Of a DNA stretch of 64,000 nt, positions 47,985-64,000 are shown in pieces. The DNA comes from Candidatus Poribacteria bacterium. GTDB lineage: Bacteria > Poribacteria > WGA-4E > JAJDTR01. The notes under the pieces are model-generated. The model was not told where the DNA came from, made no database searches, and saw nothing but the letters and a program-made list of their open reading frames with translations. The stretch spans positions 5,440,001-5,504,000 of the forward strand of contig CBDCTK010000002.1 in the NCBI GenBank assembly GCA_965222225.1, in the 5' to 3' direction. Every line of letters begins with the position of its first letter. Within the stretch, counting starts at the first letter, position 1. The position numbers were made by a program, and so were the translations under genes.

Positions 47985-48171
47985 GAGCCTGTTTGAATAA
48001 TAGGTGTAAAGCCATTTTTAGACATTTGAGGCGGGCATCTTCAAGTTTTTGTTGTCGCCTGCTATACACCTGTGGGATCTCTATCGCACTCACTATCCGA
48101 TCGCTTGATCCTCGCTGGAGCTTTGGCGTAAAGCGAGTGACGTCGCTTCATATGAATTTTCAAACAGGTTC
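47985..48171. mobile_element. MITE-like element, copy 2
   Basis: GAGCCTGTTTGAATAA..TTTTCAAACAGGTTC flanked by TAA and TTA. Internal homology to 5500-5787. Confidence 0.72.
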
Positions 48172-48252
48172 TTAAATGCACAAAGTCGAGCTAATGAGTT
48201 CTGAAAATAACGTACAGAATCCTACTCTTTTGATTCAAAAAGGACAGAATTC

Positions 48253-48747
48253 ATGGTGAACATCAATAACAGACACATCATAGAATTAGCGTTTATTTTA
48301 ACCATTACCGTGTTGCTTGCGGGGCTTTTTTCGTGCAGTCAGGTTCAGCGAGTGCTAGAGGCGGAGTATGCTCATTCAGACATCCCAATGGAAGAACGCG
48401 ACCACGTTTGGGTCGTAGATCAGAACGGTGTTGAGGTGCCTGTGCCAGGTACTTGGGTGCTCGTGTCACACACGCACTTAAACTCTACCTCTACGATAGG
48501 CGAAAGCTTCACACTACCTCCAAATCCGCCGCATAGTGTGCTGATATCGGATGGAACATATACGGATGGCGAAGATATCCTCTGGACAAAAGTGAATATA
48601 ACATCTCACGAAGGCGAGAAGTGGCAGTTTCTTGAACGTCTGGACACAAGCGTTTCCCCACATCAACTCTTTGTTGTCGTCGCAGTAGATGATAGCGGTT
48701 TGCCTGTACTGGAGTACGGAAAATATCCTTTGGGACTTAGTAGTTAA
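48253..48747 (+). pseudogene. Lipoprotein of unknown function, probably 3'-truncated by IS1595
   Basis: Lipobox LFSC. The last codons and the stop lie inside the IS end. Confidence 0.6.
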
Positions 48748-49980
48748 CTGCTTTTTGGTCGATTTGCTTGCTTTTCTCTTCTTAATGTACAATAACTTTA
48801 GACAGTGTTCGGAATCTTGATTCACACTAAAATACATCTCTATAAGAGAGAAATGGAGGCATATCATGTTGACCAAGCGTTTGTACATGCTCGCGGGAGC
48901 ATTGCGGGTTATCTGCGGGATTTTAATTTCCAACACTATGGGATTTTCAGCACACCATGATGTTGTCGTTGACAGAATATACCGATAGCCAAACAATTCA
49001 TGTGGCTCAGGTGAAGCATTCATCAAAAAATCTTATGAAAATCTCATCATCTTTTCTGCGATTATATTTCCAGCAAGACTCCATGATATACAGTGGCAGC
49101 CACTTCTTGCTGTAGTGATGATGCGTTCCGTAGAATGACCTCTTGACACAAGCCCAAAACGACTCGATGGTGTTGGTGTGAGTTACGCCGTCCTCAGAAA
49201 CATATCTCTCTTGGTGATGGATAACATGTCTTTCGATATCTTCGTCCAGACTATTGTAAGAGCGAAATTCATCAGTCATAAGAATAGACTCATCGGGTGA
49301 GACATTGCTAAGGATGAATTCTCTGATATTTTCACCAGATAGAACCTTCATGAATTTAGCAACCACCCGACCGCCTCTCTCGACTACGCCGATGACGGGA
49401 GATTTATTTGTGCCTCTACCTCTCTTAGATTTTGCTCTGGGTTTGCCGCCGACATAGGTTTCGTCCGCTTCAACTATCCCTTTCAGCAATTCATCACTAT
49501 CACTCATTTTCTCACGGAGGCGCATTGCCATATACCAAGCGGACTTTTGATTCATGTCCAAGTCACGAGCAAGCTGACAACTCGATATGCTTTTCTTGGC
49601 ATTGGAAAGAATTGAGATAGCCAAAAACCATTTCTGGAGAGGTATCTTGGTACCATGGAAGATGGTTCCTGCTGTAGCCGAAAAGCTAGATTCACAATCG
49701 TAGCAATTCCAACCAGTAGTAATGTCGTTTTTGTTCTTGCGTCCAACTTTTTCACTGCCACAGTGGATACAGCAAACACCGTCCTTCCAACGTTTTTCCT
49801 CTATAAATCTGAGACAAGATTCTTGATTTGGAAACTCTTTCATAAGATTCAAAATGTCCATAGCAAACTCCTACGAGAAGAATAGTCACTATGGACATCT
49901 ACGTGTGACGAAAAGATTTACGACAGGGTACCAAGTTTTATGTTTGTCGTCAGTCTAAAAGCTACAAGCTACTAATTCCG
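48732..49980 (-). mobile_element. IS1595-family insertion sequence, copy 2
   Basis: Near-identical inverted copy of 12902-14150. The flanks TATCCTTT and TAATGATT do not match. Confidence 0.95.
49007..49861 (-). CDS. IS1595-family DDE transposase
   Basis: Protein identical to 13021-13875. Confidence 0.95.
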   Translation of the reverse strand: MDILNLMKEFPNQESCLRFIEEKRWKDGVCCIHCGSEKVGRKNKNDITTGWNCYDCESSFSATAGTIFHGTKIPLQKWFLAISILSNAKKSISSCQLARDLDMNQKSAWYMAMRLREKMSDSDELLKGIVEADETYVGGKPRAKSKRGRGTNKSPVIGVVERGGRVVAKFMKVLSGENIREFILSNVSPDESILMTDEFRSYNSLDEDIERHVIHHQERYVSEDGVTHTNTIESFWACVKRSFYGTHHHYSKKWLPLYIMESCWKYNRRKDDEIFIRFFDECFT

Positions 49981-51354
49981 TAATGATTTTCTTCTATCAA
50001 TAATCGACTCCGTATCATAGCGTCGAATATCAGCAATACTTCTTCAATCATTTTGTATGGAATGCAACGTTGAGCGATCATAGCTAGGAGATTACTTGTG
50101 AACACGTAACTCCCATCTGGAGTTTCCCCGTCCTCCGGAGCAGTGGATAATAGCAATGCGATCCATTGCGATAGCATTGCCGTATCTGACAATGTTTCAT
50201 CGCTGCTTCCAATCTTCCGCGCAATATGCTCCCAGAACGTTGGATGGAGGCGCGTGCGATGTCTGCTAATGAGAAGGAACATCAGCTTCGGATGATTTTC
50301 CAAATACCGATTTACCAACCACCAAGATAAAATTCTGTCGCTATGTTGTAACTGCCCCGTGCCAAACAATGGGGTTAAGCGCCCACGCTTGTCAAGCCAC
50401 TCAATCCAATCTGGATGTGACGCGCTTTTTGTAAAGAATTCGGTCTTTGTTTCATCTTCAAGGGCATGAGCGATTATTCCCTCATCCTCTTCGTTCAGTT
50501 CTTGAGGCGGCTTATCGGCAATCGCAGAAATTTCACGCTGCCAACCAACCATTCCACGTCGTACATAATCGGCAAGTTTGCTGATTGCCTTGTCAAGTTC
50601 GCTATGATCATTCTCGTCATACTGCGGGTACGGAATCGTCTCAATTTTCAAATGCTTCCAGCGTCGATGGTCGGCTATGCTTTTGCGCACCAATGCGTAA
50701 CGCTGCAATCCTTCTCTTTGCGGTGGCAAGGCGCGTACCAAATAGTTCATGACCGTGTCGCTATGGCTGTAGCCGACAAAGAGAATCGTGAAATTATTAT
50801 ACAATTCAACGAGAAAACGTCTTGCCCATCCCTCGTTATAAATACGCGCGACCAAAATCTGTGTCCGTAAGTATCATCTCGTCGGCATTGGCGATGGATC
50901 CATGAACATGAACAATCCCGTTGAACTTACGTCCCAAAGGCAACGCAGGGGCACAGAATACCGGTGGTGTATCGTTGAATAGTCCCCCTGCTGCTTCCTC
51001 AAACAAAATATCAAAGTTTGTGGTAACCAGATGAACCGGTCCATCTTTGTGATAGAGTCGCAGAAGATCTTGATGAAGTGATGTCGGTTTCAAGCCTTCG
51101 GGAGAAAGCACTTTTTTTGCAATGTCATAAATCTCCACACCATCATCGTGCAAGCGTCCGAGGAATTGCTCAAGATTTTCTTTTTCGTCTCTGACTTTGT
51201 TGCTGCGTTCCGCTATTACCTTGGTTAAGGAACAAAAGTTGGGCAGACAAGCAGGTTTACCCATTGAAACACCAGCCCCAGCGAACACTACGAGATTATT
51301 ATCACGCAAGGCATCTAATAGTGGTTTGGGAAAGTCAACATTGGCTAGTTTCAT
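49962..51354 (-). pseudogene. SIR2-domain (Dsr1-like) anti-phage NADase, frameshifted and IS-truncated
   Basis: FAGAGVS, TTNFD, HVHGS, DFGRAYL, then a frameshift near 50840 to EGWARRF..FVGYSHSD. The 3' part runs into the IS. Confidence 0.82.
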
Positions 51355-51429
51355 AATATTGCTTCATCATTTCTTTCATAGGTTTATTTTCTCGCTCATC
51401 CAGTTCCTTGTGAATCGTGTCTAACGGCC

Positions 51430-51903
51430 GAACATGAGCAGTATTTATTGATGGCTTTACGGGTGGGTTCGCCGATGTAAAGGGATTCGCCCTTGCCCTC
51501 TTGATCTGTCTTACTGGAGTGAATTGCGAGCGTACTTTTCACGTCCTCGATATTGACCGCGACCGCGGTCCCGACCGTCGCGACGAATACCTGACAATGT
51601 TCGAGTGGTGATCGCTCCAACGATTTGTCGATTAACATTCGTGGACTGCCATTTGACGGCATCCACCACTTGTGAGATCGTTGCGGGCGATTTGCCTGAC
51701 TCATGAAGATGGGTAAGATACTCGGCAAGCACCGCATCATTCAATTCACGCGGGCTGACCACAGTGGATAGCCAAGTATCCCATTTGGTCAACGCCCGAC
51801 CATAGGCTGCGAGCGTGTTTTTCGAGACGCCATGCTTAATCAATTCCTTTGTCGAATCACTGATAGCAACTGAGCTTTCCTGTTTTACTGCTAATTCGTT
51901 CAT
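51430..51903 (-). pseudogene. Cre-like tyrosine recombinase remnant with an internal deletion
   Basis: Core-binding N-domain (SKNTLAAY..YLTHL..GKSPATI..LSGIRR..RGRGQ) joined out of frame to VNIEDV..SSKTDQEGKG. Confidence 0.8.
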
Positions 51904-51914
51904 GATATATCACC

Positions 51915-52733
51915 TCATTTCAAACGGTACCCGTTCTTATCCCAAGTGGAAACAGCACCGTGACCATACTCATTGATTCCAAGCGAGACGCGAGCTACAT
52001 TGTCCGTTTTGCCATAAATGTCAACGCGACCACCGTGTTCATCATTTTGCATAGTTACAAGGGGAGATTTATCATCTCCACAAACCGTGACTCCGATTCC
52101 GCTAGAGGATAACTTCACACCCCGATTATAGTTAGCTCCCAATACACTCACACTACTGTCAGAACCACTGGTCGCATCCATTAGAATCATGGAATCAGTC
52201 AGAAGAGATTCGCTTTCAGGATTATGCCACCTAGCACCACCGATTTGAATGCTACCTGCTCCTCGCATGACAATCCTCGCATCATCGTTAGTAATCTCCC
52301 ATAAGGAGACTTTTCCCGCTAAACCACCAGCCTCACTCGTCAGCTCAACTAGCCCCCTACCGCGTGCGGAAAACACGGCGATAGATCCCGCACTTTGCTC
52401 GAACTGCCTCAGTCTGATTTTCCCTGTCCCGTCTTTAGAGAGAACTCTTAATGACGTGCCGTACTCGTTGCACTCAAAGACAATCGACCCAGACTTATGT
52501 ATAGCATCAGTAATTTGAAGCGAGGCGGTATCGCTTCTGCTGGCAAGTTTGCCCGCGTGTTCCAGCACCACGCTTCTATTATCGGGTCCCGAAATAACTA
52601 GGCGATTGCAAACAATCTCATCGAATGTGTCACGTTTCGCTGTGAGCGGCGAAACACACAACCCGATGGCAAGTCCGGCAATCCCAATCACTGCGCCAAA
52701 GACCATATAGCTAAATTTCTGCTTTGTGTTCAT
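51915..52733 (-). CDS. Secreted Gly-rich beta-repeat protein, family member P1
   Basis: Leader KQKFSYMVFGAVIG..SPLTA, FDEIVC, EHGGRVDIYGK and C-terminal GAVSTWDKNG. Confidence 0.75.
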   Translation of the reverse strand: MNTKQKFSYMVFGAVIGIAGLAIGLCVSPLTAKRDTFDEIVCNRLVISGPDNRSVVLEHAGKLASRSDTASLQITDAIHKSGSIVFECNEYGTSLRVLSKDGTGKIRLRQFEQSAGSIAVFSARGRGLVELTSEAGGLAGKVSLWEITNDDARIVMRGAGSIQIGGARWHNPESESLLTDSMILMDATSGSDSSVSVLGANYNRGVKLSSSGIGVTVCGDDKSPLVTMQNDEHGGRVDIYGKTDNVARVSLGINEYGHGAVSTWDKNGYRLK

Positions 52734-52803
52734 TGACATTCTCCCATTTGGTTTTGAAATTGAGTGACGGAAAATAGTCACAAGTTAAGTTTGTATAAGA
52801 CGT

Positions 52804-52833
52804 ATTGTAAAATTTTTGCAGGCCAAATGTCAA
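52804..52833 (-). promoter_or_regulatory. Sigma70-like promoter for the P1-recombinase unit
   Basis: TTGACA-N18-TACAAT. It overlaps the inverted repeat CAAGGTAT..ATACCTTG (52831-52872). Confidence 0.5.
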
Positions 52834-52946
52834 GGTATGTACCTGTCTCACAGATATGTTGAGAATACCTTGCGAATATGCTATACTTGCCACGTTTTTG
52901 CGAGAGAAGGTATGTTTTGTACTATGGGACGACGGAAACGAAAAAA

Positions 52947-53732
52947 ATGAGCACCCTCACCGATGACCACATTCGCCAATTCAACCATGAGGGATACTTG
53001 GTATTCGAAGGTCTGTTAGATGAGAACCACAACCAGCGTATCATGCGTGATATAGACCAACTCATGGAAGATCGGGAGAATCCAAACAAACCGGCGATTC
53101 CGATGCGCTACCCCGACCTAGGTCTCTTGACCTCGGAACCTGTTATTGTGGATCGGGTGGCATCTCTCATGGGAGGAGATCCATTTGTTCACCATCATAT
53201 TCATGCCACTTGCCACATGCCCGGTGAACCCGGCGTTGCTTGGCACCACGATTACGAGCAATTGCCCCAAACGAATCGTTCGCACCTTATGGTGCACGTC
53301 TTTATGTATCATTCCGGATTGAATGGCGAAGTTGGGGACCTGCTCGTGCTACCGGGATCGCATAAGAAAATCATGAATGGAGATGCGTTCCGGCAATTTG
53401 GATGTGCCGACCTTCCAGAATCTCGCGCCATCAATGACCTTGCCCCTGCATCCGTTGTCATTGTCCACTCCGCGCTTCAGCATGCGCGTCGTGCCAAACC
53501 CGCTAACCTCGGATCCAAACGCTATTTCGTCGACACATCCTATTGCCAATATGGAATCGTTTGGCCCACAATCCGTCGGTTCCAGCAGTATAACAACATG
53601 GCACTGGAACTCGGGTGGGATCGAAATGGGAAATACGCATTTCTCTATGAAGAAGGTCATTTCTTTTTCAAAGAGGAGCACCAAGCAGCGTTCGAAAGTA
53701 GCAATCAGGGCAGTTTGGCAGTGAAACTCTAA
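52947..53732 (+). CDS. Phytanoyl-CoA dioxygenase (PhyH) family Fe(II)/2OG oxygenase
   Basis: QFNHEGYL, WHHD, VLPGSH and a distal His in LQHAR. Confidence 0.88.
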   Translation: MSTLTDDHIRQFNHEGYLVFEGLLDENHNQRIMRDIDQLMEDRENPNKPAIPMRYPDLGLLTSEPVIVDRVASLMGGDPFVHHHIHATCHMPGEPGVAWHHDYEQLPQTNRSHLMVHVFMYHSGLNGEVGDLLVLPGSHKKIMNGDAFRQFGCADLPESRAINDLAPASVVIVHSALQHARRAKPANLGSKRYFVDTSYCQYGIVWPTIRRFQQYNNMALELGWDRNGKYAFLYEEGHFFFKEEHQAAFESSNQGSLAVKL

Positions 53733-53916
53733 CGGGTAGTCGTGCAAATACACGAATCAATGGCCATACGCTTCAAAAATACCCTCATCGTCGGAGTCAA
53801 TAGTCTGATCCGGCGTAAGTGACCGCTTCTAGCAGACAAACCACCTTACTCAAAAATGCGTTTGGCTAAAGCGAGGAGGGCTGTGATTTAAGTGTGGAAG
53901 CTAAAGAGAGATAGAG

Positions 53917-55458
53917 ATGCCCAATTTTGACTTTATTCCTGAAGCACCGACCCCAGTTGGATTGAAAAAACAGCTATTCATCGACGATTACGTTGTCGCG
54001 GAAAAAAGTAATGTGAGTTTAGAGGTGGGACAGGCGAAAAAACACGGTGTCGTGATGGAACCGACACTTTTGACCGAATTTCAGTCCGGCGCGATTCACG
54101 ATGGGCCAGATGGCGGTTTTGGCTTTGAATCGCATTTCTGTTGGTTTTTCTCGCCTCACTGGGATTCGGACAAAGCTATGTTTCGCCTGTGGTACATGGC
54201 TGGCAAAAGGGCGGGTACCGGACTATCGTATGCGGAATCATCTGACGGTTTCAACTGGACCAAACCAATGATTTCCAAGGGTGGGAAGAGCAACCTTGTT
54301 ACGTGGAACTCACCTGTTCCAATTCTCCGTCGTAATGAAAGTGTTGACCTGCTTGATATCGGGCTAGATGGTGCAACCGTCACCATTGATCCGAGTTTGG
54401 AATTCGGTTCACCTGAGAAGTTCAAAATCGCGTTTTATCCGAACAGCGGTGGCATTGATGGCAAGACGCGTTTGGGATATTCAGCCGACGGAATCCATTG
54501 GAACCTATACCACGATGGTTACCCGGTAACGGAACGCGCAGCGGACACAAACAACCAGATACAGTGGGACCCGCTTACCGAACGCTACCTGCTGCACTGT
54601 CGTCAGGATTTTGAAGGCGGCGGTGGAATTGGGGAATACCGCGGCGTACGCATCATGGAACATTCAAAAGAGAACGACCTTCTGAACCATCCCACTGCAT
54701 GGAAAACCCTCACGACATTTGTATTAGACGATCCGGACAAAAGCGTGATTCCGGACACCAAAACACCCGTTTATCAGATTCACACCTTCCCGATGTCGTA
54801 CTATGAAGGCGTGTGGTTTGGCTTAACGGATATTCTGGCTGCAACCAACAAGCATGTTACCGATGGTGACCAGGATTACCACACTTCTCACGAACGGGGT
54901 GTATGGGAATTCTACATGGCGCCATCGCGTGATGGGGTCAACTACGATTTCACCGTGGCGGTCTATCCGCGCAAACCCCTCATCCCGCGCGGTCCATCCG
55001 GCAGTTTCGACAAGGATTGCGTGCGTCCGCCATCAAACATTATTACGCACAACGATGAGCACTGGATCTATTATCTGGCGACAAACGAACGCTGGGGATG
55101 TCATCGGTGGGATGCGCGCCTTGCGCTTGCCAAGCTGCGGCTCGACGGTTTCTTCTTTCTCGAAGCGAAGGAGAAGCCGGGAAGGGTGGTGACTCGGCCG
55201 TTCCTACTTGAGGGTGATAAGCTACAGGTCAACGTTGATGCATTGGATGGCTATATGAAGGTCGAGGTGCTTGAGACATCCGGTGAACCAATCCCCGTCT
55301 TCTCGGGCGATTCAGCCAAGGTTTATCGCGGGTTCGACAATCTGCGACTTGAACCAATCTGGAAGGGGAATGCCGGTTTGTCATCGTTGCGAGGCAAGGA
55401 AGTGCGGCTCAGGTTCAATTTGAGCAATGCGAAGTTGTACGCTTTTCAAATTTGCTGA
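53917..55458 (+). CDS. GH32/GH43-like five-bladed propeller protein with C-terminal beta-sandwich
   Basis: KQLFIDD, YAESSDGFNWTKP, SADGIHW, SRDG and LRLDGF. Confidence 0.65.
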   Translation: MPNFDFIPEAPTPVGLKKQLFIDDYVVAEKSNVSLEVGQAKKHGVVMEPTLLTEFQSGAIHDGPDGGFGFESHFCWFFSPHWDSDKAMFRLWYMAGKRAGTGLSYAESSDGFNWTKPMISKGGKSNLVTWNSPVPILRRNESVDLLDIGLDGATVTIDPSLEFGSPEKFKIAFYPNSGGIDGKTRLGYSADGIHWNLYHDGYPVTERAADTNNQIQWDPLTERYLLHCRQDFEGGGGIGEYRGVRIMEHSKENDLLNHPTAWKTLTTFVLDDPDKSVIPDTKTPVYQIHTFPMSYYEGVWFGLTDILAATNKHVTDGDQDYHTSHERGVWEFYMAPSRDGVNYDFTVAVYPRKPLIPRGPSGSFDKDCVRPPSNIITHNDEHWIYYLATNERWGCHRWDARLALAKLRLDGFFFLEAKEKPGRVVTRPFLLEGDKLQVNVDALDGYMKVEVLETSGEPIPVFSGDSAKVYRGFDNLRLEPIWKGNAGLSSLRGKEVRLRFNLSNAKLYAFQIC

Positions 55459-55667
55459 CCATTACGCTATGAACTAAAGCAAGATTTCTTGAATTGGGAG
55501 TCCTATCGCACAAAGATCTCTATCGCGCTCGCTTTCCACTCGCTTGATCGGTTTCGGTAGCGTCCGGTAAACGGCGGAGATTCTTGGTAGAAATAGTTAT
55601 CGGAAGTAAGTTGGTTTTGACAACTCACAAGCTATCTCTGTCTAACAGGCGAAAGGAATAACAACAG

Positions 55668-56117
55668 ATGGATTTTCACTACATCAATACGAATGACGGG
55701 TATCACGAAAGAGATACGTATAAGATATGGCTAAATCTCGGCTATGCCTTTACCAACGGGGAACAGCTTTACGGGGCAAAACTTGGAACGCTTCAGCCTG
55801 GCGATTTGGTATTCATGTATGTTTCAGGCAAGGGAATCAAGGCTGTGGGGATGGTTATCAATGAATGGGACGGTATTGAGTACCGCCAACCGATAATTTC
55901 AAGCCCATCCGCCAACAACGAGTTTCGCATTCAAATAAACTGGTTCATCGTTCCTCCAGATGATTTTGTGCCTTCTTCGAAAGTGAAGGAGATTATGGGA
56001 TACGATTTTGTGCAGACTTGCGCACGCATCAACAAACGCGACGCAGCCGAGAAACTCCTCCGATATATGCTGCAGATGCTAGAATTATGCGGGTACAGCT
56101 TGACGTGGGACAGTTAA
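55668..56117 (+). CDS. Hypothetical protein with a PUA/EVE-like domain
   Basis: LQPGDLVFMYVSGKGIKAVGMV..FRIQINW pattern. Confidence 0.55.
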   Translation: MDFHYINTNDGYHERDTYKIWLNLGYAFTNGEQLYGAKLGTLQPGDLVFMYVSGKGIKAVGMVINEWDGIEYRQPIISSPSANNEFRIQINWFIVPPDDFVPSSKVKEIMGYDFVQTCARINKRDAAEKLLRYMLQMLELCGYSLTWDS

Positions 56118-56168
56118 TTTTTGATTTGCGTGGGAATTAAGAATCGGAATTAAGAAAAGGAGAAGATT

Positions 56169-56567
56169 ATGCGAAGGAAAGGAGCGTTGTATGCAGTGAT
56201 TGGCGGTGTTGTTGGGGCAGTTCTAACGATGGTGTGCTGCTTGTTCATGCCATTCGTGGCGCAAAGTCAATCTGAGGTTGCGCCCGATGGGGTATTCGGC
56301 CAGATAACCTGTAGGGGGATGAAGGTGGTTGATTCGGAGGGCAAACTGGGTGTGCTTATCTTCAACGGTGATTACGGTGGGCGGGTCGACGTGTTTGGCA
56401 AAGATGGTAATCCCCGTGCCGGTATGCTCATCACCGAACATGGGGGGCAGCTCGCCGTTTTGGACAAAGATCACAAAGCCGGTGTGGTGATGGCCGTCAC
56501 CAAATATGGGAACGGCGCGGTAAACACGTGGGATAAGAACGGGTCTCCTTTGGCTACATTGAAGTGA
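56169..56567 (+). CDS. Secreted Gly-rich beta-repeat protein P2
   Basis: MRRK..VIGGVVGAVLTM leader, FGQITC, GGRVDVFGKDG and GAVNTWDKNG. Confidence 0.75.
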   Translation: MRRKGALYAVIGGVVGAVLTMVCCLFMPFVAQSQSEVAPDGVFGQITCRGMKVVDSEGKLGVLIFNGDYGGRVDVFGKDGNPRAGMLITEHGGQLAVLDKDHKAGVVMAVTKYGNGAVNTWDKNGSPLATLK

Positions 56568-56662
56568 GAAGTGGGTGATTCGCGTGATTTTAGGTAATCG
56601 GTAGTAATACCATTTCTCTAAATTGCAAGTGCATTGATTACGTGGATCAAGTAAATAAACTT

Positions 56663-56730
56663 GCGTGGAGCGGAGTAAGACGCCTCGTCTCCGCCGCGTA
56701 AAGTCGGCGGGGCAAGATGCCTCGCCTACG
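56663..56730. repeat. Pair of REP-like palindromes
   Basis: Minus strand GTAG-GCGAGGCATCTTGCCCCGC, next to a related hairpin. Confidence 0.45.
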
Positions 56731-57683
56731 GGGTTTGGTATGAAGGTCAACAGTTGGTATGGGTCGTGTCATAATAGTTTAATTGAAAAACACTGTATGC
56801 ACTGTTATTCAAGCGAAATGGTATAAGTCGATTTTTTAATTTGGTTCTTCATAGTTAAATGCGGGATTGAAATTTGCTGCATGAAGGCGCGTTTGCCCTA
56901 TGGGTTCAAATTGCTTGCTATAATTCCCAAGTTTTGTGATTGAAAACTTCACACATGTATAGTATGATATAGCCGGTTAGCGATGGTCGCGACCTTATTC
57001 CTGCCAGCGGTATGCCGCCGGGACGAAAATCCCATGTGTCTCGTATACATTTTGTTCTGCTGCGCATCCGCTGTCCCAGCGCTGTCAAAGGCTTCCGCGC
57101 TCACTGGAGAAGTCAAAACGCCTTCAAACCGTTGCGCTGAGAACACAATCCGGTCACCCTTGCGCGCGGTTCATTGCCGTGAAAATAGGAAAAAACAACA
57201 GAGTAAGATGTTGAATCTATGTCTAAATCGTCTGTCTTGTTCAACTGTTCTTGCCCCCTGTTCAGTGGAGGCTTTGGTGGCAAATGAGTGAATCTCGGCG
57301 GCGTCCGGTCATTGCGCCTGACGCGGTTTTTCGGCAGTCATTTCAGCACCGCGGGCAGAGGGGTCAAAGTTATAATCGCAGAAAATCACAGTATTTCACA
57401 CGCTCAAATACGAGCAAAAATCATGCACGAATCCAAGCTACGACACGCTTCAATGCCCGTCTCGAGTCTTAACGCATCGACTGCAATGGAGACTACGGTA
57501 GTCGGATCAAACGGGTGGATAAATCAAGTGAACGAACAGGCAACGCGATATGGATCCTGGGGCGATAGGAATCCCACAGCAAAGGCGATAGATATCCCAT
57601 AGAAATCTCCTCCGTATCACGACACTCGGGATCTGTAACGCGTCTGGTAAACGGCGGAGATATTTAGCAGAAATACAGGTGTC

Positions 57684-57767
57684 ATGACGAATTCACGTCC
57701 CGATTTAATTCTAATCATGTGCGATCAGATGCGGTGGGATGCTGCCGGATTCGCCGGGAGTTCAACA
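57684..57767 (+). pseudogene. Duplicated 5' end of the sulfatase gene (left junction of the array)
   Basis: MTNSRPDLILIMCDQMRWDAAGFAGSST matches the start at 62333. 57711-57757 is identical to 62360-62406 (47 bp). Confidence 0.9.
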
Positions 57768-57881
57768 ATATCCTTACCAAGGCGATTATCCAGATCCGCT
57801 GTTAAATTGTCCTTATGCGAGTATAGGTTGGTTTTCTGGGTTTTCGTTCAGTCTCAAAACCATGACAAAAGGAGAGCTATT

Positions 57882-58346
57882 ATGATAAAACGAGAGTTAG
57901 TTTGTGCGTCGGTGATAGGCGGTATTGTTGGGGCAGTTCTTACGATGGCGGCGGGGTCGTTCTCGCCACTGGGCGCGCAAAATGAAGTGAGGGATGCGGA
58001 GTTTAGAAAAATAACATGTACCGCGCTCAGGGTGGAAGGTGCGGACGGAGCAAGAGCCGTGACCCTAGGCGCTGTAGGAAATGGCGGGAGTGTTTTCGTG
58101 TTTGGCAAGGACGGAGAAATTGGCGTGGGTATGACCGTCAATAAAAATGGCGGGTACGTTCGCGTACACGACAAGAACCTAGAATCAGGCGTGAGTATGA
58201 GCGTTGATGAACATGGCGGGTATGTTCGCGTGGAGAGCAAGGACGTAGAAATACTTGAAGGCGTAAGGCTGAGTGTGGATGAGCGTGGCGGGCGCGTTGA
58301 CGTGTACGGCAGAGACGGAGAATATAACGAGCTAACACCCAAGTGA
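57882..58346 (+). CDS. Secreted Gly-rich beta-repeat protein P3
   Basis: AGGAG RBS, MIKRE..VIGGIVGAVLTM..SPLGAQ and FRKITC. Confidence 0.78.
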   Translation: MIKRELVCASVIGGIVGAVLTMAAGSFSPLGAQNEVRDAEFRKITCTALRVEGADGARAVTLGAVGNGGSVFVFGKDGEIGVGMTVNKNGGYVRVHDKNLESGVSMSVDEHGGYVRVESKDVEILEGVRLSVDERGGRVDVYGRDGEYNELTPK

Positions 58347-58357
58347 GGTGATGAATC

Positions 58358-58403
58358 ATGAATGAGTTGGCAGTTCGAAACGAAAGCGTACTGGCTATCA
58401 GTG
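58358..58403 (+). pseudogene. Recombinase 5' stub (MNELAVRNESVLAIS)
   Basis: Matches the start of the recombinase at 51903 and ends at ATCAGTG. Confidence 0.75.
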
Positions 58404-58447
58404 TTGCGTTGTGGATAATTACAAAGGTTTAGGAATGGGAGGATGTT

Positions 58448-59047
58448 GTGCGAAGGAAAGAGTTGCTGTTTGGAATGTTTTGCGGTGCTGTCGGGGCGAT
58501 TCTAACAACGGCAGTGGGGTTGTTCACGCCTCTCGTAGCGCAGGATGAATTGAGCGATGTGGCATTCGGAAAGATAATCTGTAGGGAAATTGTGATGGTT
58601 GATTCGGATAATAACCTCTGTGTTAGAATGGACGCCGAACGATATGGCGGAAGCATATATGTGAACGGCAAAGATGGCGACTCCAGTGTGAGCATAGGCA
58701 TAGATAAAAATGGCGGAGACATCACCGTGCATGGTACCGGTAATAAAATGGCGTATATGGAAATTGACGACGAAGGTGGCAGGGTCGGTGTGTTTGGCAA
58801 TGGTGGTGATCGCGATAATAGCGGGAGCGCAAGTCTGAGTATCGGCGAAAATAGAGGCAGGATCGGCGTATTCAACGAAGATGGAAAAGTCTGTGCGCTC
58901 ATGGTCGCATATGTTGATAGCTATATAAATGGCGGATTGATCGAAGTGTTTGGCAGCGATGGCAAACTCCGTGCAGTTATGGGCGCAGGTGTACATGCCG
59001 GGGTGCTCGCCGCGTATGGCAGCGATGGAACGACGGTTATAAAGTGA
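58448..59047 (+). CDS. Secreted Gly-rich beta-repeat protein P4
   Basis: Leader, FGKIIC and GGxIxVxGxDG repeats. Confidence 0.78.
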   Translation: MRRKELLFGMFCGAVGAILTTAVGLFTPLVAQDELSDVAFGKIICREIVMVDSDNNLCVRMDAERYGGSIYVNGKDGDSSVSIGIDKNGGDITVHGTGNKMAYMEIDDEGGRVGVFGNGGDRDNSGSASLSIGENRGRIGVFNEDGKVCALMVAYVDSYINGGLIEVFGSDGKLRAVMGAGVHAGVLAAYGSDGTTVIK

Positions 59048-59058
59048 GGTGATGAACC

Positions 59059-59232
59059 ATGAACAGATTGGCAATTAGACAAGAGAACGCACTGGCTATT
59101 AGTGATTCCACGAAGGGTTTGATACGTGCCGGCGTCTCGGAGAACACGCTGCGGGCTTAGCGTTGCGCTTTGCTGAAGCTGAACAGGTGGCTAAGTGACA
59201 CGTGGAACATTTCCGATCAACTGAGCGGTTAG
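59059..59232 (+). pseudogene. Recombinase 5' stub, long form
   Basis: MNRLAIRQENALAISDSTKGLIRAGVSENTLRA*RCALLKLNRWLS aligns with the recombinase N-terminus. Confidence 0.85.
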
Positions 59233-59309
59233 CGACGGCGATAGAAAATCCCGTGCGATAGAGCTCCCATAGCTAATCCCTCAAGCGGCCGAATAAGGAG
59301 GGTGAGGCA

Positions 59310-59405
59310 ATGGGGGATGCGGTTATAGGCGGTTGTACGGGTGCAGTATTAACAATGCGCGTATCTTATGTGTTGTGGCGTGCCCCAAGGAAAAATGCGA
59401 CGTAA
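59310..59405 (+). pseudogene. Decayed leader of an eighth family member
   Basis: AVIGGCTGAVLTM matches the family leader AVIGGVVGxVLTM. Confidence 0.55.
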
Positions 59406-59580
59406 CGAAAGTCTTGTGAGAGAGGGTTTGGGATGTCACAGTGAAGGAAGATTCGCAGTGGTTGCAACTGAAACCTTTTCTGATTTTCTTATTCCCGTGT
59501 CTAACGTTAATAGAGCCACAGTGAATACAACAGGGCGAGTCTCAATATCCGCATTTTTATTGGTAAAATAAACTAACGTA

Positions 59581-59619
59581 TGATATGATTCGCCCACTTT
59601 TGACGAAAGTAGTCAAAAG
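59581..59619 (+). promoter_or_regulatory. Putative hicBA promoter and operator
   Basis: Extended -10 TGaTATGAT followed by the inverted repeat CTTTTGAC-N7-GTCAAAAG. Confidence 0.5.
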
Positions 59620-59670
59620 ATTTAAAAATAGACGAACTATACGATTTTACATTCAGATGGAGAAAGTACA

Positions 59671-60030
59671 GTGTATTACAAAATTACTGTAATCTTACAA
59701 CCTCAACCTGAAGGTGTATATACAGTAACCTGTAAAGAGTTACCCGAACTTATAACTGAAGGCAGAACAATAGAAGAAGCATTATATAATGTGGAAGATG
59801 CTTTTTCTGCAACTTTAGAAATATATGGAGAGTTTAGCCAACCTCTGCCTCGGGAAATTATGTTCGCGGAAGCTCCAACTGGAAACAACTCGGAAATAAA
59901 CTTGCTTGAATCAAAAAAATCTAAGGCAAAGTCGAAGTTTAGGTTTCAAACTCTTGACCCCCCATTAGAACACCCGGGCTTATGTTTTCGGGCGGCTTCT
60001 GTGACCCAAATTATGGGATATGAGATATAA
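59671..60030 (+). CDS. hicB: HicB-family antitoxin
   Basis: YTVTCKELPELITEGRTIEEALYNVEDA. Confidence 0.85.
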   Translation: MYYKITVILQPQPEGVYTVTCKELPELITEGRTIEEALYNVEDAFSATLEIYGEFSQPLPREIMFAEAPTGNNSEINLLESKKSKAKSKFRFQTLDPPLEHPGLCFRAASVTQIMGYEI

Positions 60031-60229
60031 CGAGGTTAAGCGAAAACTAAGGCGATTAGGCTGTCAAGAGTTAAAATCATCAGGCAAAGGTTCACACCGA
60101 AAATGGTATAATCCCGACACGAATAAGAAGGCTACAATTCCATATAACAACAGGGAATTAGCCAAGGGAACCCTCCGTGCCATAATGAAAACATTAGCAA
60201 TTGACGGTAAGATGTTCGAAGATGCTTAG
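60020..60229 (+). CDS. hicA: HicA-family toxin
   Basis: LRRLGC..GKGSHRKW..TIP..ELAKGTLRAI. Overlaps hicB. Confidence 0.9.
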   Translation: MRYNEVKRKLRRLGCQELKSSGKGSHRKWYNPDTNKKATIPYNNRELAKGTLRAIMKTLAIDGKMFEDA

Positions 60230-60492
60230 CCAATTCTATTCTAATTTTCAGCGGATACTCCACTAAAGAGGTCCGTTTTTTTGTGTAAACTCTCAATTTT
60301 ACTTAACATAACACAGGTTGCGGCCTATAACAAAGAAACCGAGTTTTTGGTTCGCGTTCGCTGCATTTTAGGTAAATTGGTCTGATTTTCACCAATCTCG
60401 CGATTCCATGTCGGAAAAAACTCGGTCTCTCTGCCTCTGTCGAACAATGGTGACAACTTGGGTTAGAACGTATGAATGAAAAGGACAAGGTT

Positions 60493-61011
60493 ATGCGAAG
60501 GAAAGAGGCGTTGTTTGCAGTAATAGGCGGCGTTGTCGGGACAGTATTAACGATGACGGCAGGTTCGTTCTCGCCATTGGAAGCGCAAAATGAAGTGAGA
60601 GAGGTGTATTTCGATGAGATAAGGTGTAGGCAGATAGTGGTGGATTACCCCAACGGTATTCCTGCGATATTGCTATCCGCGGTCGAGGATGGCGGGGCAT
60701 TGGTTATTATGGGCAACAATGGCGGCGGTGTGTTTATTGAGAGCAATAAAACAGGCGGGAGTGTCAGGGTGCGTGGCAAAGATGGCAAAGGCGAGGCAGG
60801 CATGAACATTAACGAACATGGGGGAGGGTATATCGGCACGGTTAACAAACATGGCAATGGCGGTGTGCTTATGGACGCCGACGAATATGGAGGAGATGTC
60901 ACCGTGTATGGTAACGACGGCTCTGCCCGTGCGAGTATGAGCACCTACGACGATGGAGGGTACGTCAGCGTGTACAAAAAAGATGGCAGCCTCCGTGCAA
61001 CTTTGAAGTGA
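60493..61011 (+). CDS. Secreted Gly-rich beta-repeat protein P5
   Basis: MRRKEALFAVIGG leader, FDEIRC and C-terminal RATLK. Confidence 0.78.
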   Translation: MRRKEALFAVIGGVVGTVLTMTAGSFSPLEAQNEVREVYFDEIRCRQIVVDYPNGIPAILLSAVEDGGALVIMGNNGGGVFIESNKTGGSVRVRGKDGKGEAGMNINEHGGGYIGTVNKHGNGGVLMDADEYGGDVTVYGNDGSARASMSTYDDGGYVSVYKKDGSLRATLK

Positions 61012-61026
61012 AGGGAGAGTGAATCC

Positions 61027-61069
61027 ATGAATGAGTTGGCAATCAAGCAATAGGAATCAATGATCAGTG
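61027..61069 (+). pseudogene. Recombinase 5' stub (MNELAIKQ*..ISE)
   Basis: Degenerate copy that also ends at ATCAGTG. Confidence 0.65.
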
Positions 61070-61083
61070 AAAGGAGAATCATC

Positions 61084-61542
61084 GTGAGGTACCGAGAGAA
61101 ATTGGGATATATGGTTTTGGGCGGAATCTTGATGCTGGTTGGCATGTTAGCTGCGGGGTTGTTTTCGCCGCTGGGGGCGCAAACTGAATCGGATGTCACT
61201 TTTGGGAAGGTAACCTGTGGGGAACTTAAGGTGATGGATAGGTACGGGCGTACAGCGGTGGTTATAAAGCCTTATTCACATGGCGGGATGGTTCAAGTGA
61301 ATGGCACGGACGAAAATTCATTCGTGCTTATGGCGATTGGGACACGGGGCGGGATGGTTCGAGTGCTCGGCAAGGACGACAATTCCGAGGCGCTTATGTG
61401 GATTGACGAACGAGGAGGGGAAATGGTCGTGTGCGGTAAGGACGCATTTACAAAGGCGACAATGGGAGTTGACGGCGAACAGGCCGGGTTCGTGCTCGTT
61501 CGCGGCCAAGACGGAGAATATAACGAGCTAACCCCCGAGTGA
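61084..61542 (+). CDS. Secreted Gly-rich beta-repeat protein P6
   Basis: AAGGAG RBS with GTG start, REKLGYMVLGG leader, FGKVTC and C-terminal DGEYNELTP. Confidence 0.78.
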   Translation: MRYREKLGYMVLGGILMLVGMLAAGLFSPLGAQTESDVTFGKVTCGELKVMDRYGRTAVVIKPYSHGGMVQVNGTDENSFVLMAIGTRGGMVRVLGKDDNSEALMWIDERGGEMVVCGKDAFTKATMGVDGEQAGFVLVRGQDGEYNELTPE

Positions 61543-61553
61543 GGTGATTAATC

Positions 61554-61599
61554 ATGAACGAGTTGGCAGTTCGAAACGAAAGCATACTGGCTATCAGTG
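61554..61599 (+). pseudogene. Recombinase 5' stub (MNELAVRNESILAIS)
   Basis: Near-identical to 58358-58403. Confidence 0.75.
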
Positions 61600-61643
61600 T
61601 TGAGTTTTGGATAATTACAAAGGTTTAGGAATAGGAGAATGTT

Positions 61644-62030
61644 ATGCGAAGGAAAGAGTTGATGTTTGGAGTGTTTTGCGGTGCTGTCGGGGCGATTCTA
61701 ACAACGGCAGTGGGGTTGTTCACGCCTCTCGTAGCGCAGAATGATGTAATGGATGCGAAGTTCGATACGGTAAACTGTAGGACGTTAATTGTGGAAGATG
61801 AGGATGGTAAACACGATGTGGTTATCTTTGGAGGCAGCGTTATCGCGCATGGGGAAGGCGAGGGGCGTGTGAGGATGGGCGCCGGCGTCATTGCTGGAGA
61901 AGCTGGTGGTCATGTCATAGTGTATGGACGCGATGAAAAAAACGTCGCGAAGATGGCGGCTGAAGAAGATGGCGGTTTTGTTTCCGTGTTTAGTAAGGAC
62001 GGAACAGGAAACATCTTAATGCCGAAGTAA
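61644..62030 (+). CDS. Secreted Gly-rich beta-repeat protein P7
   Basis: Leader almost identical to P4, FDTVNC and a different mature region. Confidence 0.78.
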   Translation: MRRKELMFGVFCGAVGAILTTAVGLFTPLVAQNDVMDAKFDTVNCRTLIVEDEDGKHDVVIFGGSVIAHGEGEGRVRMGAGVIAGEAGGHVIVYGRDEKNVAKMAAEEDGGFVSVFSKDGTGNILMPK

Positions 62031-62041
62031 GGTGATGAACC

Positions 62042-62214
62042 TTGGATAGATTGGCAATTAGACAAGAGAACGCAATGGCTATCGGTGGTTCCACGAAGGA
62101 TTTCATTCAAGCCGGCGTTTCGGAAAACTCGCTGCAGGCGTATCGTCGGGGGTTGTTGGAACTGGACAAGTGGATAACGACGGCGGGACAGTTTCAAATG
62201 AACTGAGCGGATAG
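62042..62214 (+). pseudogene. Recombinase 5' stub, long form
   Basis: LDRLAIRQENAMAIGGSTKDFIQAGVSENSLQAYRRGLLELDKWI. Confidence 0.82.
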
Positions 62215-62332
62215 ATCGGACGAGCGGACAGCTAGTGCGAAAGCCATCTCACTTCATTGACCATCCTATAGCTTCAAGGGCTTAACTGACCATTAATCAC
62301 TAACCGCTAGACACTTAACAAAAATAGGCATC

Positions 62333-63781
62333 ATGGCGGATTCGCGCCCCAATTTAATACTAATCATGTGCGATCAGATGCGGTGGGATGCTGCCGGATT
62401 CGCCGGAAGTTCCACGGTTCAGACTCCTCACCTCGATCGGTTGGCAGCGAACGGTGTTTGCTTTGAAAACGCTTATTGCGCATCCCCGGTTTGTTCACCT
62501 GCTCGCGCGAGTTGGTTGAGCGGTCTATATCCGCATGCCCATCTTCAACTGCGAAATTATGGTTCCGCTAGGATGGGCAAGTTCGGTTGCTATCTACCTC
62601 CCGATTGCATAACTATCGGTGATGTTCTCAAAGCTGCCGGCTACCGCTGCGGCATGGTAGGTCCATGGCATCTGGGCGAAGACCACAATCCACAACACGG
62701 GTTCACCGATTTCTGGCGCGCCTATCGTTATCAGGGCGATTACCCGGATCCGTTGTTTGATTATTTTGAACAGGAAGGGGTTCCAAACCTCTATCTCCCG
62801 GACGCGCCCGGGATGACGCTCTATGAAAATACGCTAGAATTTGGTACAATAGACGACCCTCGGCAGCAACGAACCACTTGGACGGTTGACCGGGGTATCG
62901 AATTCATCCAGGGGGCAGATGGAGCGCCATTCTTTCTATTTGCCAGTATCAAGGACCCGCATCCCAGAATCTTGGTACCGCCCGAGCTTCTAGAACACTA
63001 TCCGGAAGATCAGATACGACTCTCTTCCTCCTTGCGGGATTCACTTGAGGGAAAACCCGAGTTTCAGAAAAGGGGAAAATTTCGCATTCGTCCGACGGTA
63101 ACCGACGAGCAATTTCGCCGGATGATGGCTTACTATTACGCCCTCATTACGCACATTGATGCTGAAGTCGGGCGTATCCTCAAAACGCTTGAAGAACGAA
63201 ATCTTATTGACAACACGATAGTCGTCTTCATTAGCGATCACGGTGAGTTGCTAGGCGACCACGGCTATGTGGAGAAATGCCTAATGTATGAGGCGTCGGT
63301 ACGAGTGCCGTGCCTAATCTCATGGCCCGAGCAGTTGCCGAGCGGGGCCCGCGTCACTGCGCCGCTCGCCGGTGTCGATTTAATGCCGACGTTGCTCGAC
63401 CTCGTAAATGAAGTTCCGCCAACACCAATTGATGGGCACTCCGTAGCAGAGGCGATTCTGAATGGACGAGAGCCTGAGCGCCAGCCGATCTTCGCCGAAA
63501 TCGCCAGTCTTAACGCGATTTATCATGGTGCTCAAGAGCCGGAACAGCTTGCTGCCCACGTAATGGTGCGTGATGAGAATTGGAAATACATTTGGAACCG
63601 TTTCGATATCGACGAACTGTACGACTTGAATGCAGACCCGGGTGAGATGAAAAATGTCGCCAGCGATTCCGATCAGCGCAATCGGGCTGCATTGATGCGT
63701 GAGCAAATCGTCGAGATGATTTGCCATACAGGTCCCGGCCCCTACGAATGGTGTTTACTTGAAAGAGAAAAGAATGAGTAG
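62333..63781 (+). CDS. Cys-type sulfatase (choline-sulfatase/arylsulfatase-like)
   Basis: PNLILIMCDQ, CSPARAS, SDHGE and ELYDLNADPGE. Confidence 0.93.
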   Translation: MADSRPNLILIMCDQMRWDAAGFAGSSTVQTPHLDRLAANGVCFENAYCASPVCSPARASWLSGLYPHAHLQLRNYGSARMGKFGCYLPPDCITIGDVLKAAGYRCGMVGPWHLGEDHNPQHGFTDFWRAYRYQGDYPDPLFDYFEQEGVPNLYLPDAPGMTLYENTLEFGTIDDPRQQRTTWTVDRGIEFIQGADGAPFFLFASIKDPHPRILVPPELLEHYPEDQIRLSSSLRDSLEGKPEFQKRGKFRIRPTVTDEQFRRMMAYYYALITHIDAEVGRILKTLEERNLIDNTIVVFISDHGELLGDHGYVEKCLMYEASVRVPCLISWPEQLPSGARVTAPLAGVDLMPTLLDLVNEVPPTPIDGHSVAEAILNGREPERQPIFAEIASLNAIYHGAQEPEQLAAHVMVRDENWKYIWNRFDIDELYDLNADPGEMKNVASDSDQRNRAALMREQIVEMICHTGPGPYEWCLLEREKNE

Positions 63782-64000
63782 ATATCTTTCAATTTGTGTA
63801 CTCGTAGTTATTTGCTGGAGTGGGGACGCATCTAGAAGTGTCAAGGCTGACGAGGGAGAAGGAATTGAGGGGCTTGCCGAGGCGATACCTATCCTAGGAA
63901 AACAAGCCAAAAAGGAAAGTTTGGAGACCCTAGTCCCTCTTGAGATCGGTCTCAAGAAACAACTGCTTGTTGATGACTACATCGTTGCCGAAAAGAGGAA
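63774..64000 (+). CDS. Secreted GH32-like protein, paralog of 53917-55458, 3'-partial
   Basis: MSRYLSICVLVVIC.. followed by GLKKQLLVDDYIVAEK. The frame is open to the window end. Confidence 0.75.
   Translation, partial: MSRYLSICVLVVICWSGDASRSVKADEGEGIEGLAEAIPILGKQAKKESLETLVPLEIGLKKQLLVDDYIVAEKR

Follow-up and report, generated by a model that had tools for sequence, protein, structure and literature searches.

The window, as the whole 64,000-nucleotide stretch analysed here is called (Candidatus Poribacteria bacterium, assembly GCA_965222225.1, contig CBDCTK010000002.1, positions 5,440,001 to 5,504,000), holds between its positions 51430 and 62214 an array of genes for a repeat-protein family, P, accompanied by remnants of a Cre-like tyrosine recombinase, R, that is linked to P. 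Poribacteria are uncultivated sponge symbionts. The genome of the window (G000) was analysed together with G001–G009, which makes 10 genomes, or species, of one genus, and the 5' remnants of R are referred to as stubs. The ORF (open reading frame) listing, direct reading, and tblastn located seven P paralogs and one decayed P leader, which lie among the R remnants as follows (nt, nucleotides; aa, amino acids; HMM, hidden Markov model; MITE, miniature inverted-repeat transposable element; REP, repetitive extragenic palindrome).

51428-51903, minus strand: long R pseudogene, 14 nt behind a P stop, with an internal deletion, a frameshift, and its 3' end lost; ortholog in G002.
51915-52781, minus strand: P paralog, 288 aa, in the opposite orientation to the main array (HMM E-value of 6.8e-40).
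56169-56567, plus strand: P paralog, 132 aa, without a clear R start behind it; a MITE lies 40 nt downstream.
57882-58346, plus strand: P paralog, 154 aa, with a P-type leader in front.
58358-58403, plus strand: R 5' stub J1, 46 nt, reaching codon 15-16 and ending in ATCAGTG.
58448-59047, plus strand: P paralog, 199 aa.
59059-59199, plus strand: R 5' stub, about 47 codons long and containing stops; REP-like repeats come next.
59310-59405, plus strand: decayed P leader, 31-aa ORF; ortholog in G005.
60493-61011, plus strand: P paralog, 172 aa.
61027-61069, plus strand: R 5' stub J3, 43 nt, with an in-frame stop and a coincidental ATCAGTG.
61084-61542, plus strand: VKY/VRY-subtype P paralog, 152 aa, with its junction at TGAAAGGAGAATCATC-GTG.
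61554-61599, plus strand: R 5' stub J2, a duplicate of J1.
61644-62030, plus strand: P paralog, 128 aa.
62042-62206, plus strand: terminal R 5' stub of about 54 codons; orthologs in G007, G002, and G009.

Alignment and repeat finding upheld the FxxIxC motif and the repeats that a preliminary description of the locus had reported along with the paralogs. In a 19-sequence alignment (the seven window copies and 12 database relatives), the columns P28, A31, F43, C48, G116, and G125 were invariant, and F43 and C48 make up the FxxIxC motif behind a hydrophobic N-terminus. The GGxVxVxGKDG repeat corresponded to a 37-nt unit present in 13 copies, spaced 66-78 nt apart within the genes, and a 167-nt 5' block of P was found in five copies. 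All six P genes between 56169 and 62030 are on the plus strand; only the P gene at 51915 is inverted, with an arm identity of 75-78%. Genes of P that stand alone outside arrays are preceded by a TGTATAAT box and the conserved leader TATCGRMAGTAAGTTRGTTTT, found at four places in the genome, whereas array-internal P genes are promoterless and joined at ribosome-binding sites. The start boundary of VKY-type P genes was always TGAAAGGAG. A scan for promoter-like sites (15 found, 10.2 expected) and terminator-like sites (one found, 6.0 expected) was uninformative except that terminators were absent between P genes.

No family was retrieved for P in Pfam, NCBIfam, or PADLOC, and the protein atlas returned unnamed clusters only. 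A word-indexed search yielded 250 relatives at E <= 0.001, for which the only name given was 'hypothetical protein [Candidatus Poribacteria bacterium]'. In the profile search, 32 of the 41 related genomes contained P, and each genome of two genera gave 11-52 matches; hmmsearch identified 26 P ORFs or fragments in G000. The AlphaFold2 model of the 132-aa paralog (mean predicted local distance difference test score of 82.8) has a helix at its N-terminus (residues 3-32), then a linker modelled with low confidence, and eight beta-strands arranged as hairpins. When this model was compared with the PDB using Foldseek, the top matches were engineered OspA single-layer beta-sheets (E-value of 6.8e-4, template modelling score of 0.54 on the query, 6-11% identity). 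Because of the predicted structure and the fold matches, P is most likely a repeat protein, either anchored in the membrane or secreted, that varies in length by whole hairpins. The likeness to OspA would be a fold analogy only, not family membership: the single-layer hairpin sheet of the Borrelia protein is predicted for the P body too, but P has an N-terminal membrane helix and a modular repeat.

Two intact P-linked R genes, here named recA (318 aa; contig C2, 2334179-2335135) and recB (310 aa; 4353489-4354421), were found in G000. The recA product contains Phage_integrase (2.1e-18) and SAM_1 domains in Pfam, and its best matches among solved structures were all Cre (E-value of 1.4e-12, residues 70-315). 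The alignment retains LLRISE, K, GHSLRVG, GRW, and HY at the catalytic R, K, H-x-x-R, W, and Y positions of Cre, which we take to be R173, K201, H289/R292, W315, and Y324. R scored below every NCBIfam cut-off, including those of XerD (81 bits; cut-off 330) and XerA/integron-integrase (77 bits; cut-off 220). By these sequence comparisons, R is a genuine two-domain Cre-like tyrosine recombinase.

The six R starts in the window (51903 on the minus strand, 58358, 59059, 61027, 61554, and 62042) lie 14-18 nt behind P stops, as had been described, and only the P gene at 56169 has none. The same arrangement recurs elsewhere. Among 25 P ORFs examined in G000, 12 were flagged with an R start, 11 of them at offsets of 9-19 nt; the remaining one, at an offset of 64, was taken as chance. 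All 11 R starts of the P-linked type in this genome sit directly after a P stop. Across modules, 7-21 nt separate the start of R from the P stop, the range for the two intact G000 copies being 7-18 nt, and R is downstream of and co-oriented with P in every intact module. P was also found immediately upstream of R in G005, G009, G018, and G040, which represent three families of the order, and at 20 further loci nine of 42 P ORFs were flagged with an R start, one of them doubtful. A promoterless P commonly comes after R in turn, as at recA and at the loci L088/L022, and two R 3' tails lie just before P starts. The comparison of gene neighbourhoods thus supports the proposed unit of P and a Cre-like recombinase, with intact modules both here and in relatives, and indicates that the P -> R two-gene module is conserved and Poribacteria-specific.

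Six P-R modules were compared for their flanks, five with an uninterrupted R frame and one (L070, in G005) with an in-frame TGA. No dyad-symmetric or conserved non-coding site, shared inverted repeat, or flank motif was detected near them, and a lox-like site (13-bp arms, 8-bp spacer) was not identified. An invertible promoter was considered and rejected, as no consistent inverted repeats surrounded four P-R modules; an att site was looked for as well, and the all-against-all comparison of the six modules' flanks returned P 5' homology only. A second module in G000, in which a 330-aa protein with no assigned function precedes a related Cre-like recombinase, exists in five intact copies with 78-92% nucleotide identity, all outside the window (contig C2, positions 460276, 1313887, 3335643, 3989323, and 4161171), and the pairing occurs in at least five other genomes. 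The ends of these five copies are a promoter and a point about 60 nt past R, with no terminal repeats and no site revealed.

Three further R pseudogenes, at 4357259-4358073 and 4828196-4829040 of G000 contig C2 and at locus L080 of G012 (another genus), share the same break of about 90 nt relative to the R profile (model positions ~268-363). The shared break suggests either that an already defective copy spread or that the deletion recurred.

In the window, the R copies are truncated to various extents. The pseudogene at 51903 matches R model positions 8-368 and 499-640, and its 130-aa N-terminal ORF matches Phage_int_SAM_1. The two long stubs, previously estimated at about 55 codons, reached approximately codon 47 (59059) and codon 54 (62042) in nhmmer. 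The preliminary description had further proposed that a unit of P and recombinase inserted repeatedly at or near one site in the R 5' end, with three stubs stopping at the same ATCAGTG. The letters are as reported; a common site is not supported. J1 and J2, which end at R nt 49-50, are one duplicated junction, and the third ATCAGTG, in J3, is a coincidence because the orthologous junctions in G007 and G002 are longer (R homology to ~nt 65-70): the G000 copy later lost 22 nt, and the letters arose in this diverged, shortened copy. No other copies of the 44-nt leader of J1/J2 were found in the family outside G000. A by-eye match of this leader to the tail of recA (TTCAAAG..TAG..GGAGGA), which would make it an R 3' relic, was not regarded as significant.

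Across the 10 genus genomes and chosen loci of four others, approximately 17 independent stub ends were recorded, at R nt ~15, 17, 26, 49, 67, 93, 93, 138, 141, 162, 256, 266, 290, 302, 364, 620, and 711, and no clustering at one site was seen. The end at nt ~15 is in G005, and that at nt 162 is the terminal stub common to four species. The five array-internal junction types end at nt ~15, 49, ~67, 93, and 141. Between the P genes at 465796 and 466468, and before the P gene at 4354438, only the last 14-20 R codons are left; such R 3' tails between P genes have a polarity opposite to that of insertion into the R 5' end. The junctions are old, being common to two to four species. Orthologous terminal stubs showed 42-60% identity with 37-78 gap columns, and the first 600 nt of the adjacent sulfatase gene 82-89% identity with no gaps; the orthologous stubs therefore decay neutrally, like pseudogenes. 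Scattered ends, 3' tails, old shared junctions, and neutral decay together speak against repeated insertion at one R site. The RNAs of five P-R junctions folded no better than their shuffles (z from -0.94 to 1.50), so that structured RNA was rejected as an account of the stubs, and Rfam gave no matches at E <= 0.1 in 48000-64000.

The array occupies an intergenic hot spot with the following further features.

53917-55458, plus strand: conserved gene of 513 aa, the left flank of the hot spot.
55564-55618, plus strand: left edge of the variable island, formed by one copy of the segment with the sulfatase promoter (CCGGTAAACGGCGGAGA...TATC), which runs into a P-type 5' leader, TATCGGAAGTAAGTTGGTTTT.
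55668-56117, plus strand: gene of 149 aa with no assigned function, first of the island in six of 10 species; no Pfam match and a weak match to PADLOC PDC-S11 (E-value of 2.7e-4).
56607-56824, plus strand: MITE-like element bounded by 28-nt terminal inverted repeats (ATACCATTTC...), of which the genus has many copies.
57640-57800, plus strand: second copy of the sulfatase promoter segment and a pseudogene fragment of the sulfatase 5' end (aa 1-28 fused to ~aa 133-142), inside the array.
59671-60229, plus strand: HicB-like/HicA toxin-antitoxin pair inside the P array.
62333-63781, plus strand: intact, conserved sulfatase gene, which flanks the hot spot on the right.

The 513-aa gene and the sulfatase gene are present in all 10 genus genomes. 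They lie 206 bp apart in G004 and G006, which represent empty sites, and 2.1-8.8 kb apart in the other eight species. In tblastn, P matches within the gap numbered six in G000, five in G005, four in G007, three in G002, and one in G009, with none in G003, G001, G008, G006, or G004; array content at this syntenic site thus varies from zero to six P genes on insertion-polymorphic DNA. Of the two signs of ordinary duplication and decay that the preliminary description had named, unclustered breakpoints were therefore found and an invariant array was not. Filled sites start with the sulfatase promoter segment and the P-type leader. In G007, G002, and G009, the promoter segment appears again at the right edge, where it is fused to a terminal R stub, with the sulfatase ATG coming next. 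A further island of 5.9 kb in G005 carries a P gene, an R gene interrupted by a single in-frame TGA, a small ORF of winged-helix-like type, a gene for a lipoprotein, further ORFs, and another P gene, and the same site spans only 13-556 bp in the remaining nine genomes of the genus. At the right end of the island, a P stop is followed by GGTGAT, where the R ribosome-binding site would begin, and a MITE adjoins. P-R modules ride on presence/absence islands gathered at particular intergenic hot spots.

Several smaller observations concern the same site. A HicB-like ORF was also found at the hot spot in G005, G003, and G008. The MITE family numbers dozens of copies per genome in the genus, including one directly after the last P gene on the G005 island and one where the site of that island is empty in G000. 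REP-like repeats of the GCGATAGAG.TCCCATAG type, which are very abundant in the genome, lie at 55515-55550, 57560-57600, and 59215-59275, and adjoin several stub ends and island edges. The sulfatase ATG (window 62300-62335) has no Shine-Dalgarno sequence and an AAAAAT/TAGAAA box about 7 nt upstream, so that the gene may be leaderless; upstream of it, two alternative sequence types were distinguished among the 10 species.

Beyond the loss of R, the array shows signs of internal rearrangement. The linker blocks at 58289-58560 and 61485-61756 (240-280 nt) are 93.75% identical over their central 240 nt, and the P bodies flanking them are unalignable. Each block comprises the last ~40 nt of a P gene, a stub, a leader, and the signal-peptide region as far as PLVAQ; the next stubs past the pair are ~81-85% identical. 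The sulfatase 5' fragment inside the array and the ~94% identity of the linker blocks point to segmental duplication and homologous exchange. Blocks common to G000 and G005 stand in a different order in each genome, and this difference, taken with the sulfatase fragment inside the array, would fit differential loss after a tandem duplication. Between the VRY-type P gene and the terminal stub, G000 has a unit composed of a 16-codon stub, a leader, and the P gene at 61644; G002 has only the VKY-type P gene and the terminal stub. A J3-like unit (J3 stub and VKY-type P gene) also occurs at an unlinked locus of G005. More generally, P genes of different loci and species share constant blocks that run from -12/-14 to +59..+141 nt relative to the P start with 88-94% identity, and have unalignable bodies.

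Public runs from other studies (X4, X5, and X1), compared as assembled contigs, contained 29-48% of the sampled words. Summed contig depth in these runs was lower over the P genes than over the flanks, where missing cover is not evidence. Contig joints at 56181->57910, 56140->60478, and 57607->59241 had shorter sides of only 23-29 nt and may reflect repeats or other organisms. The joint 61568->59289 in X4 (shorter side of 31 nt) carries 37 inserted letters that equal the G005 arrangement bar one letter; it represents a G005-like variant in another study and reveals no mechanism.

On balance, the region is probably a decayed and rearranged P-R(-P) operon-type array on island DNA, derived from a two-gene module of the Poribacteria. 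The P genes would have been kept intact while each R was eroded by deletions with differing endpoints, leaving 5' stubs, and elsewhere 3' tails, squeezed between one P stop and the ribosome-binding site of the next P gene. A tandem duplication of several kb, carrying along the 5' end of the neighbouring sulfatase gene, would have reshaped the array, as would homologous exchange or gene conversion between linker blocks made up of a P 3' end, an R stub, and a P signal-peptide region. R would be the former integrase of the islands, and selection for co-transcription would keep its relics short.

Several observations weigh against an origin by decay. Short stubs are in excess, with 10 of the ~17 ends within the first 162 nt of a gene of ~950 nt, and nt 93 was hit by two apparently independent truncations, one in G005/G002 followed by a P leader and the other on contig 15 of G007 followed by unrelated DNA; neither the excess nor the recurrence is predicted by purely random deletion. 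Array-internal deletions always end 0-44 nt from the next P start, a limit that may be put down to selection. The conservation of the first ~100 nt of P could mark a recombination site rather than mere constraint. Finally, the census of stub ends is confined to the 10 genus genomes and loci of four others.

Because of the short-stub excess, the recurrence at nt 93, and the sharp bounds of the constant blocks, we retained as unlikely, but not negligible, the explanation that R shuffles a variable surface-protein family at a site in the 5' part of P (the leader/signal-peptide region, perhaps the P-R junction). R would then excise and re-insert P units or swap their bodies, and the stubs would be by-products moving with the constant block, a course of events that we regard as improbable to the same degree. 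R is embedded in P arrays with P on both sides, the 88-94% identical P 5' blocks give way abruptly to unalignable bodies, the unit of J3 stub and VKY-type P is found at two unlinked loci of G005, and VKY-type P genes always begin at TGAAAGGAG; the contig joints 56181->57910 and 56140->60478 also fall in P 5' regions, although they count for little with shorter sides of 28-29 nt. However, the six P-R modules revealed no dyad or conserved non-coding site nearby, the P arrays of genus g4 are mostly without R stubs, and the block conservation is explicable by constraint on the membrane helix and ordinary gene conversion. Inversion switching is excluded within the array since its genes are co-oriented. 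Taken more broadly, P and R might form a lineage-specific diversification system of sponge symbionts, in which R recombines a site in the constant block (the P-R junction, leader, or signal-peptide region) and so transfers promoterless P genes, and a piece of R with them, among arrays and hot spots. We consider this doubtful, and equally so the idea that such a system would work like an integron or shufflon for a single surface-protein family while dispensing with IntI and attC.

Stacking without R, in which imprecisely excised hot-spot circles bearing sulfatase flank re-enter by single-crossover homologous recombination and so pile up islands, is decidedly unlikely. It would account for the direct repeats of the sulfatase promoter segment (~45-75 nt) that flank the island in G007, G002, and G009 and for the third promoter copy with a sulfatase coding fragment inside the G000 array, but plain tandem duplication gives the same repeats, no circle or donor was observed, and the repeats are diverged, which makes the event old. 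Least probable of all is an integron-like platform in which cassettes of P with R, or of P with an R stub, insert site-specifically in the 5' end of a resident R and stack up: it fits the promoterless P genes joined at ribosome-binding sites, the additional unit with P 61644 in G000 relative to G002, and the two truncations at nt 93, but is opposed by the five junction types with different ends, the resolution of ATCAGTG by orthologs, P-[R 3' tail]-P junctions, junctions common to several species and decaying neutrally, the lack of a pile of R 3' remainders behind the array, and the failure to find IntI, an attC-like structure, or an Rfam match.

The P-R array shares features with several known systems. 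Like an integron, it has mostly promoterless same-strand small genes in a row, variable between relatives, with a toxin-antitoxin pair inside and an associated tyrosine recombinase. Yet R is not IntI by its score of 77 bits against a cut-off of 220, and six inverted-repeat pairs were found in 51000-62600 without any of them bounding a cassette; attC-like hairpins were not found (no dedicated attC model was run). NCBIfam, Rfam, and the inverted-repeat results thus agree with the earlier statement that IntI and attC are missing. In addition, R is downstream and co-oriented, whereas an integron integrase is divergent at the array head with attI and Pc, and the cassettes are paralogs of one family rather than unrelated genes.

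The vsp, vpma, and vsa systems of Mycoplasma with Xer1/HvsR, and shufflons with Rci, rely on inversions, at defined sites, between genes of opposite orientation. They resemble the P array in having a family with a constant 5' end, repeat-rich variable bodies, and an adjacent tyrosine recombinase; unlike them, the P array is head-to-tail, no site was found, and its R copies are dead. Cre of phage P1 is the best solved-structure match of R, with two domains and the aligned catalytic residues retained, but R lies in a chromosomal operon with a membrane protein and no lox-like site was identified. Integrative islands share with this locus a presence/absence polymorphism in which empty sites are clean, direct repeats on either side, and integrase pseudogenes at the edges. 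The target here is, however, not a tRNA gene, and the integrase is closely coupled in translation to one cargo family, with relics after almost every array gene.

The analysis defines a large P family without a Pfam match, a conserved P-R operon link, and hot spots whose arrays differ between species. If R were active on P loci, the system would be a new mode of shuffling surface-protein genes and a source of new Cre-type recombinase/site pairs; if R is inactive on them, the array is a clear case of integrase relics trimmed within an operon of kept cargo genes. Poribacteria and tyrosine recombinases were not found together in any paper of the searched set, and a literature search on Cre-like recombinases with gene-cassette arrays turned up integron papers only.

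Next to the R pseudogene at 51428-51903, two adjacent ORFs on the minus strand (49962-51354 and 49007-49861) match the N-terminal ~390 of the 1248 positions of the model for Dsr1 (SIR2), an anti-phage defence protein. The Dsr1-like gene thus looks split and truncated, and its ORFs adjoin a gene for an IS1595/ISXO2-like transposase as well as the pseudogene.

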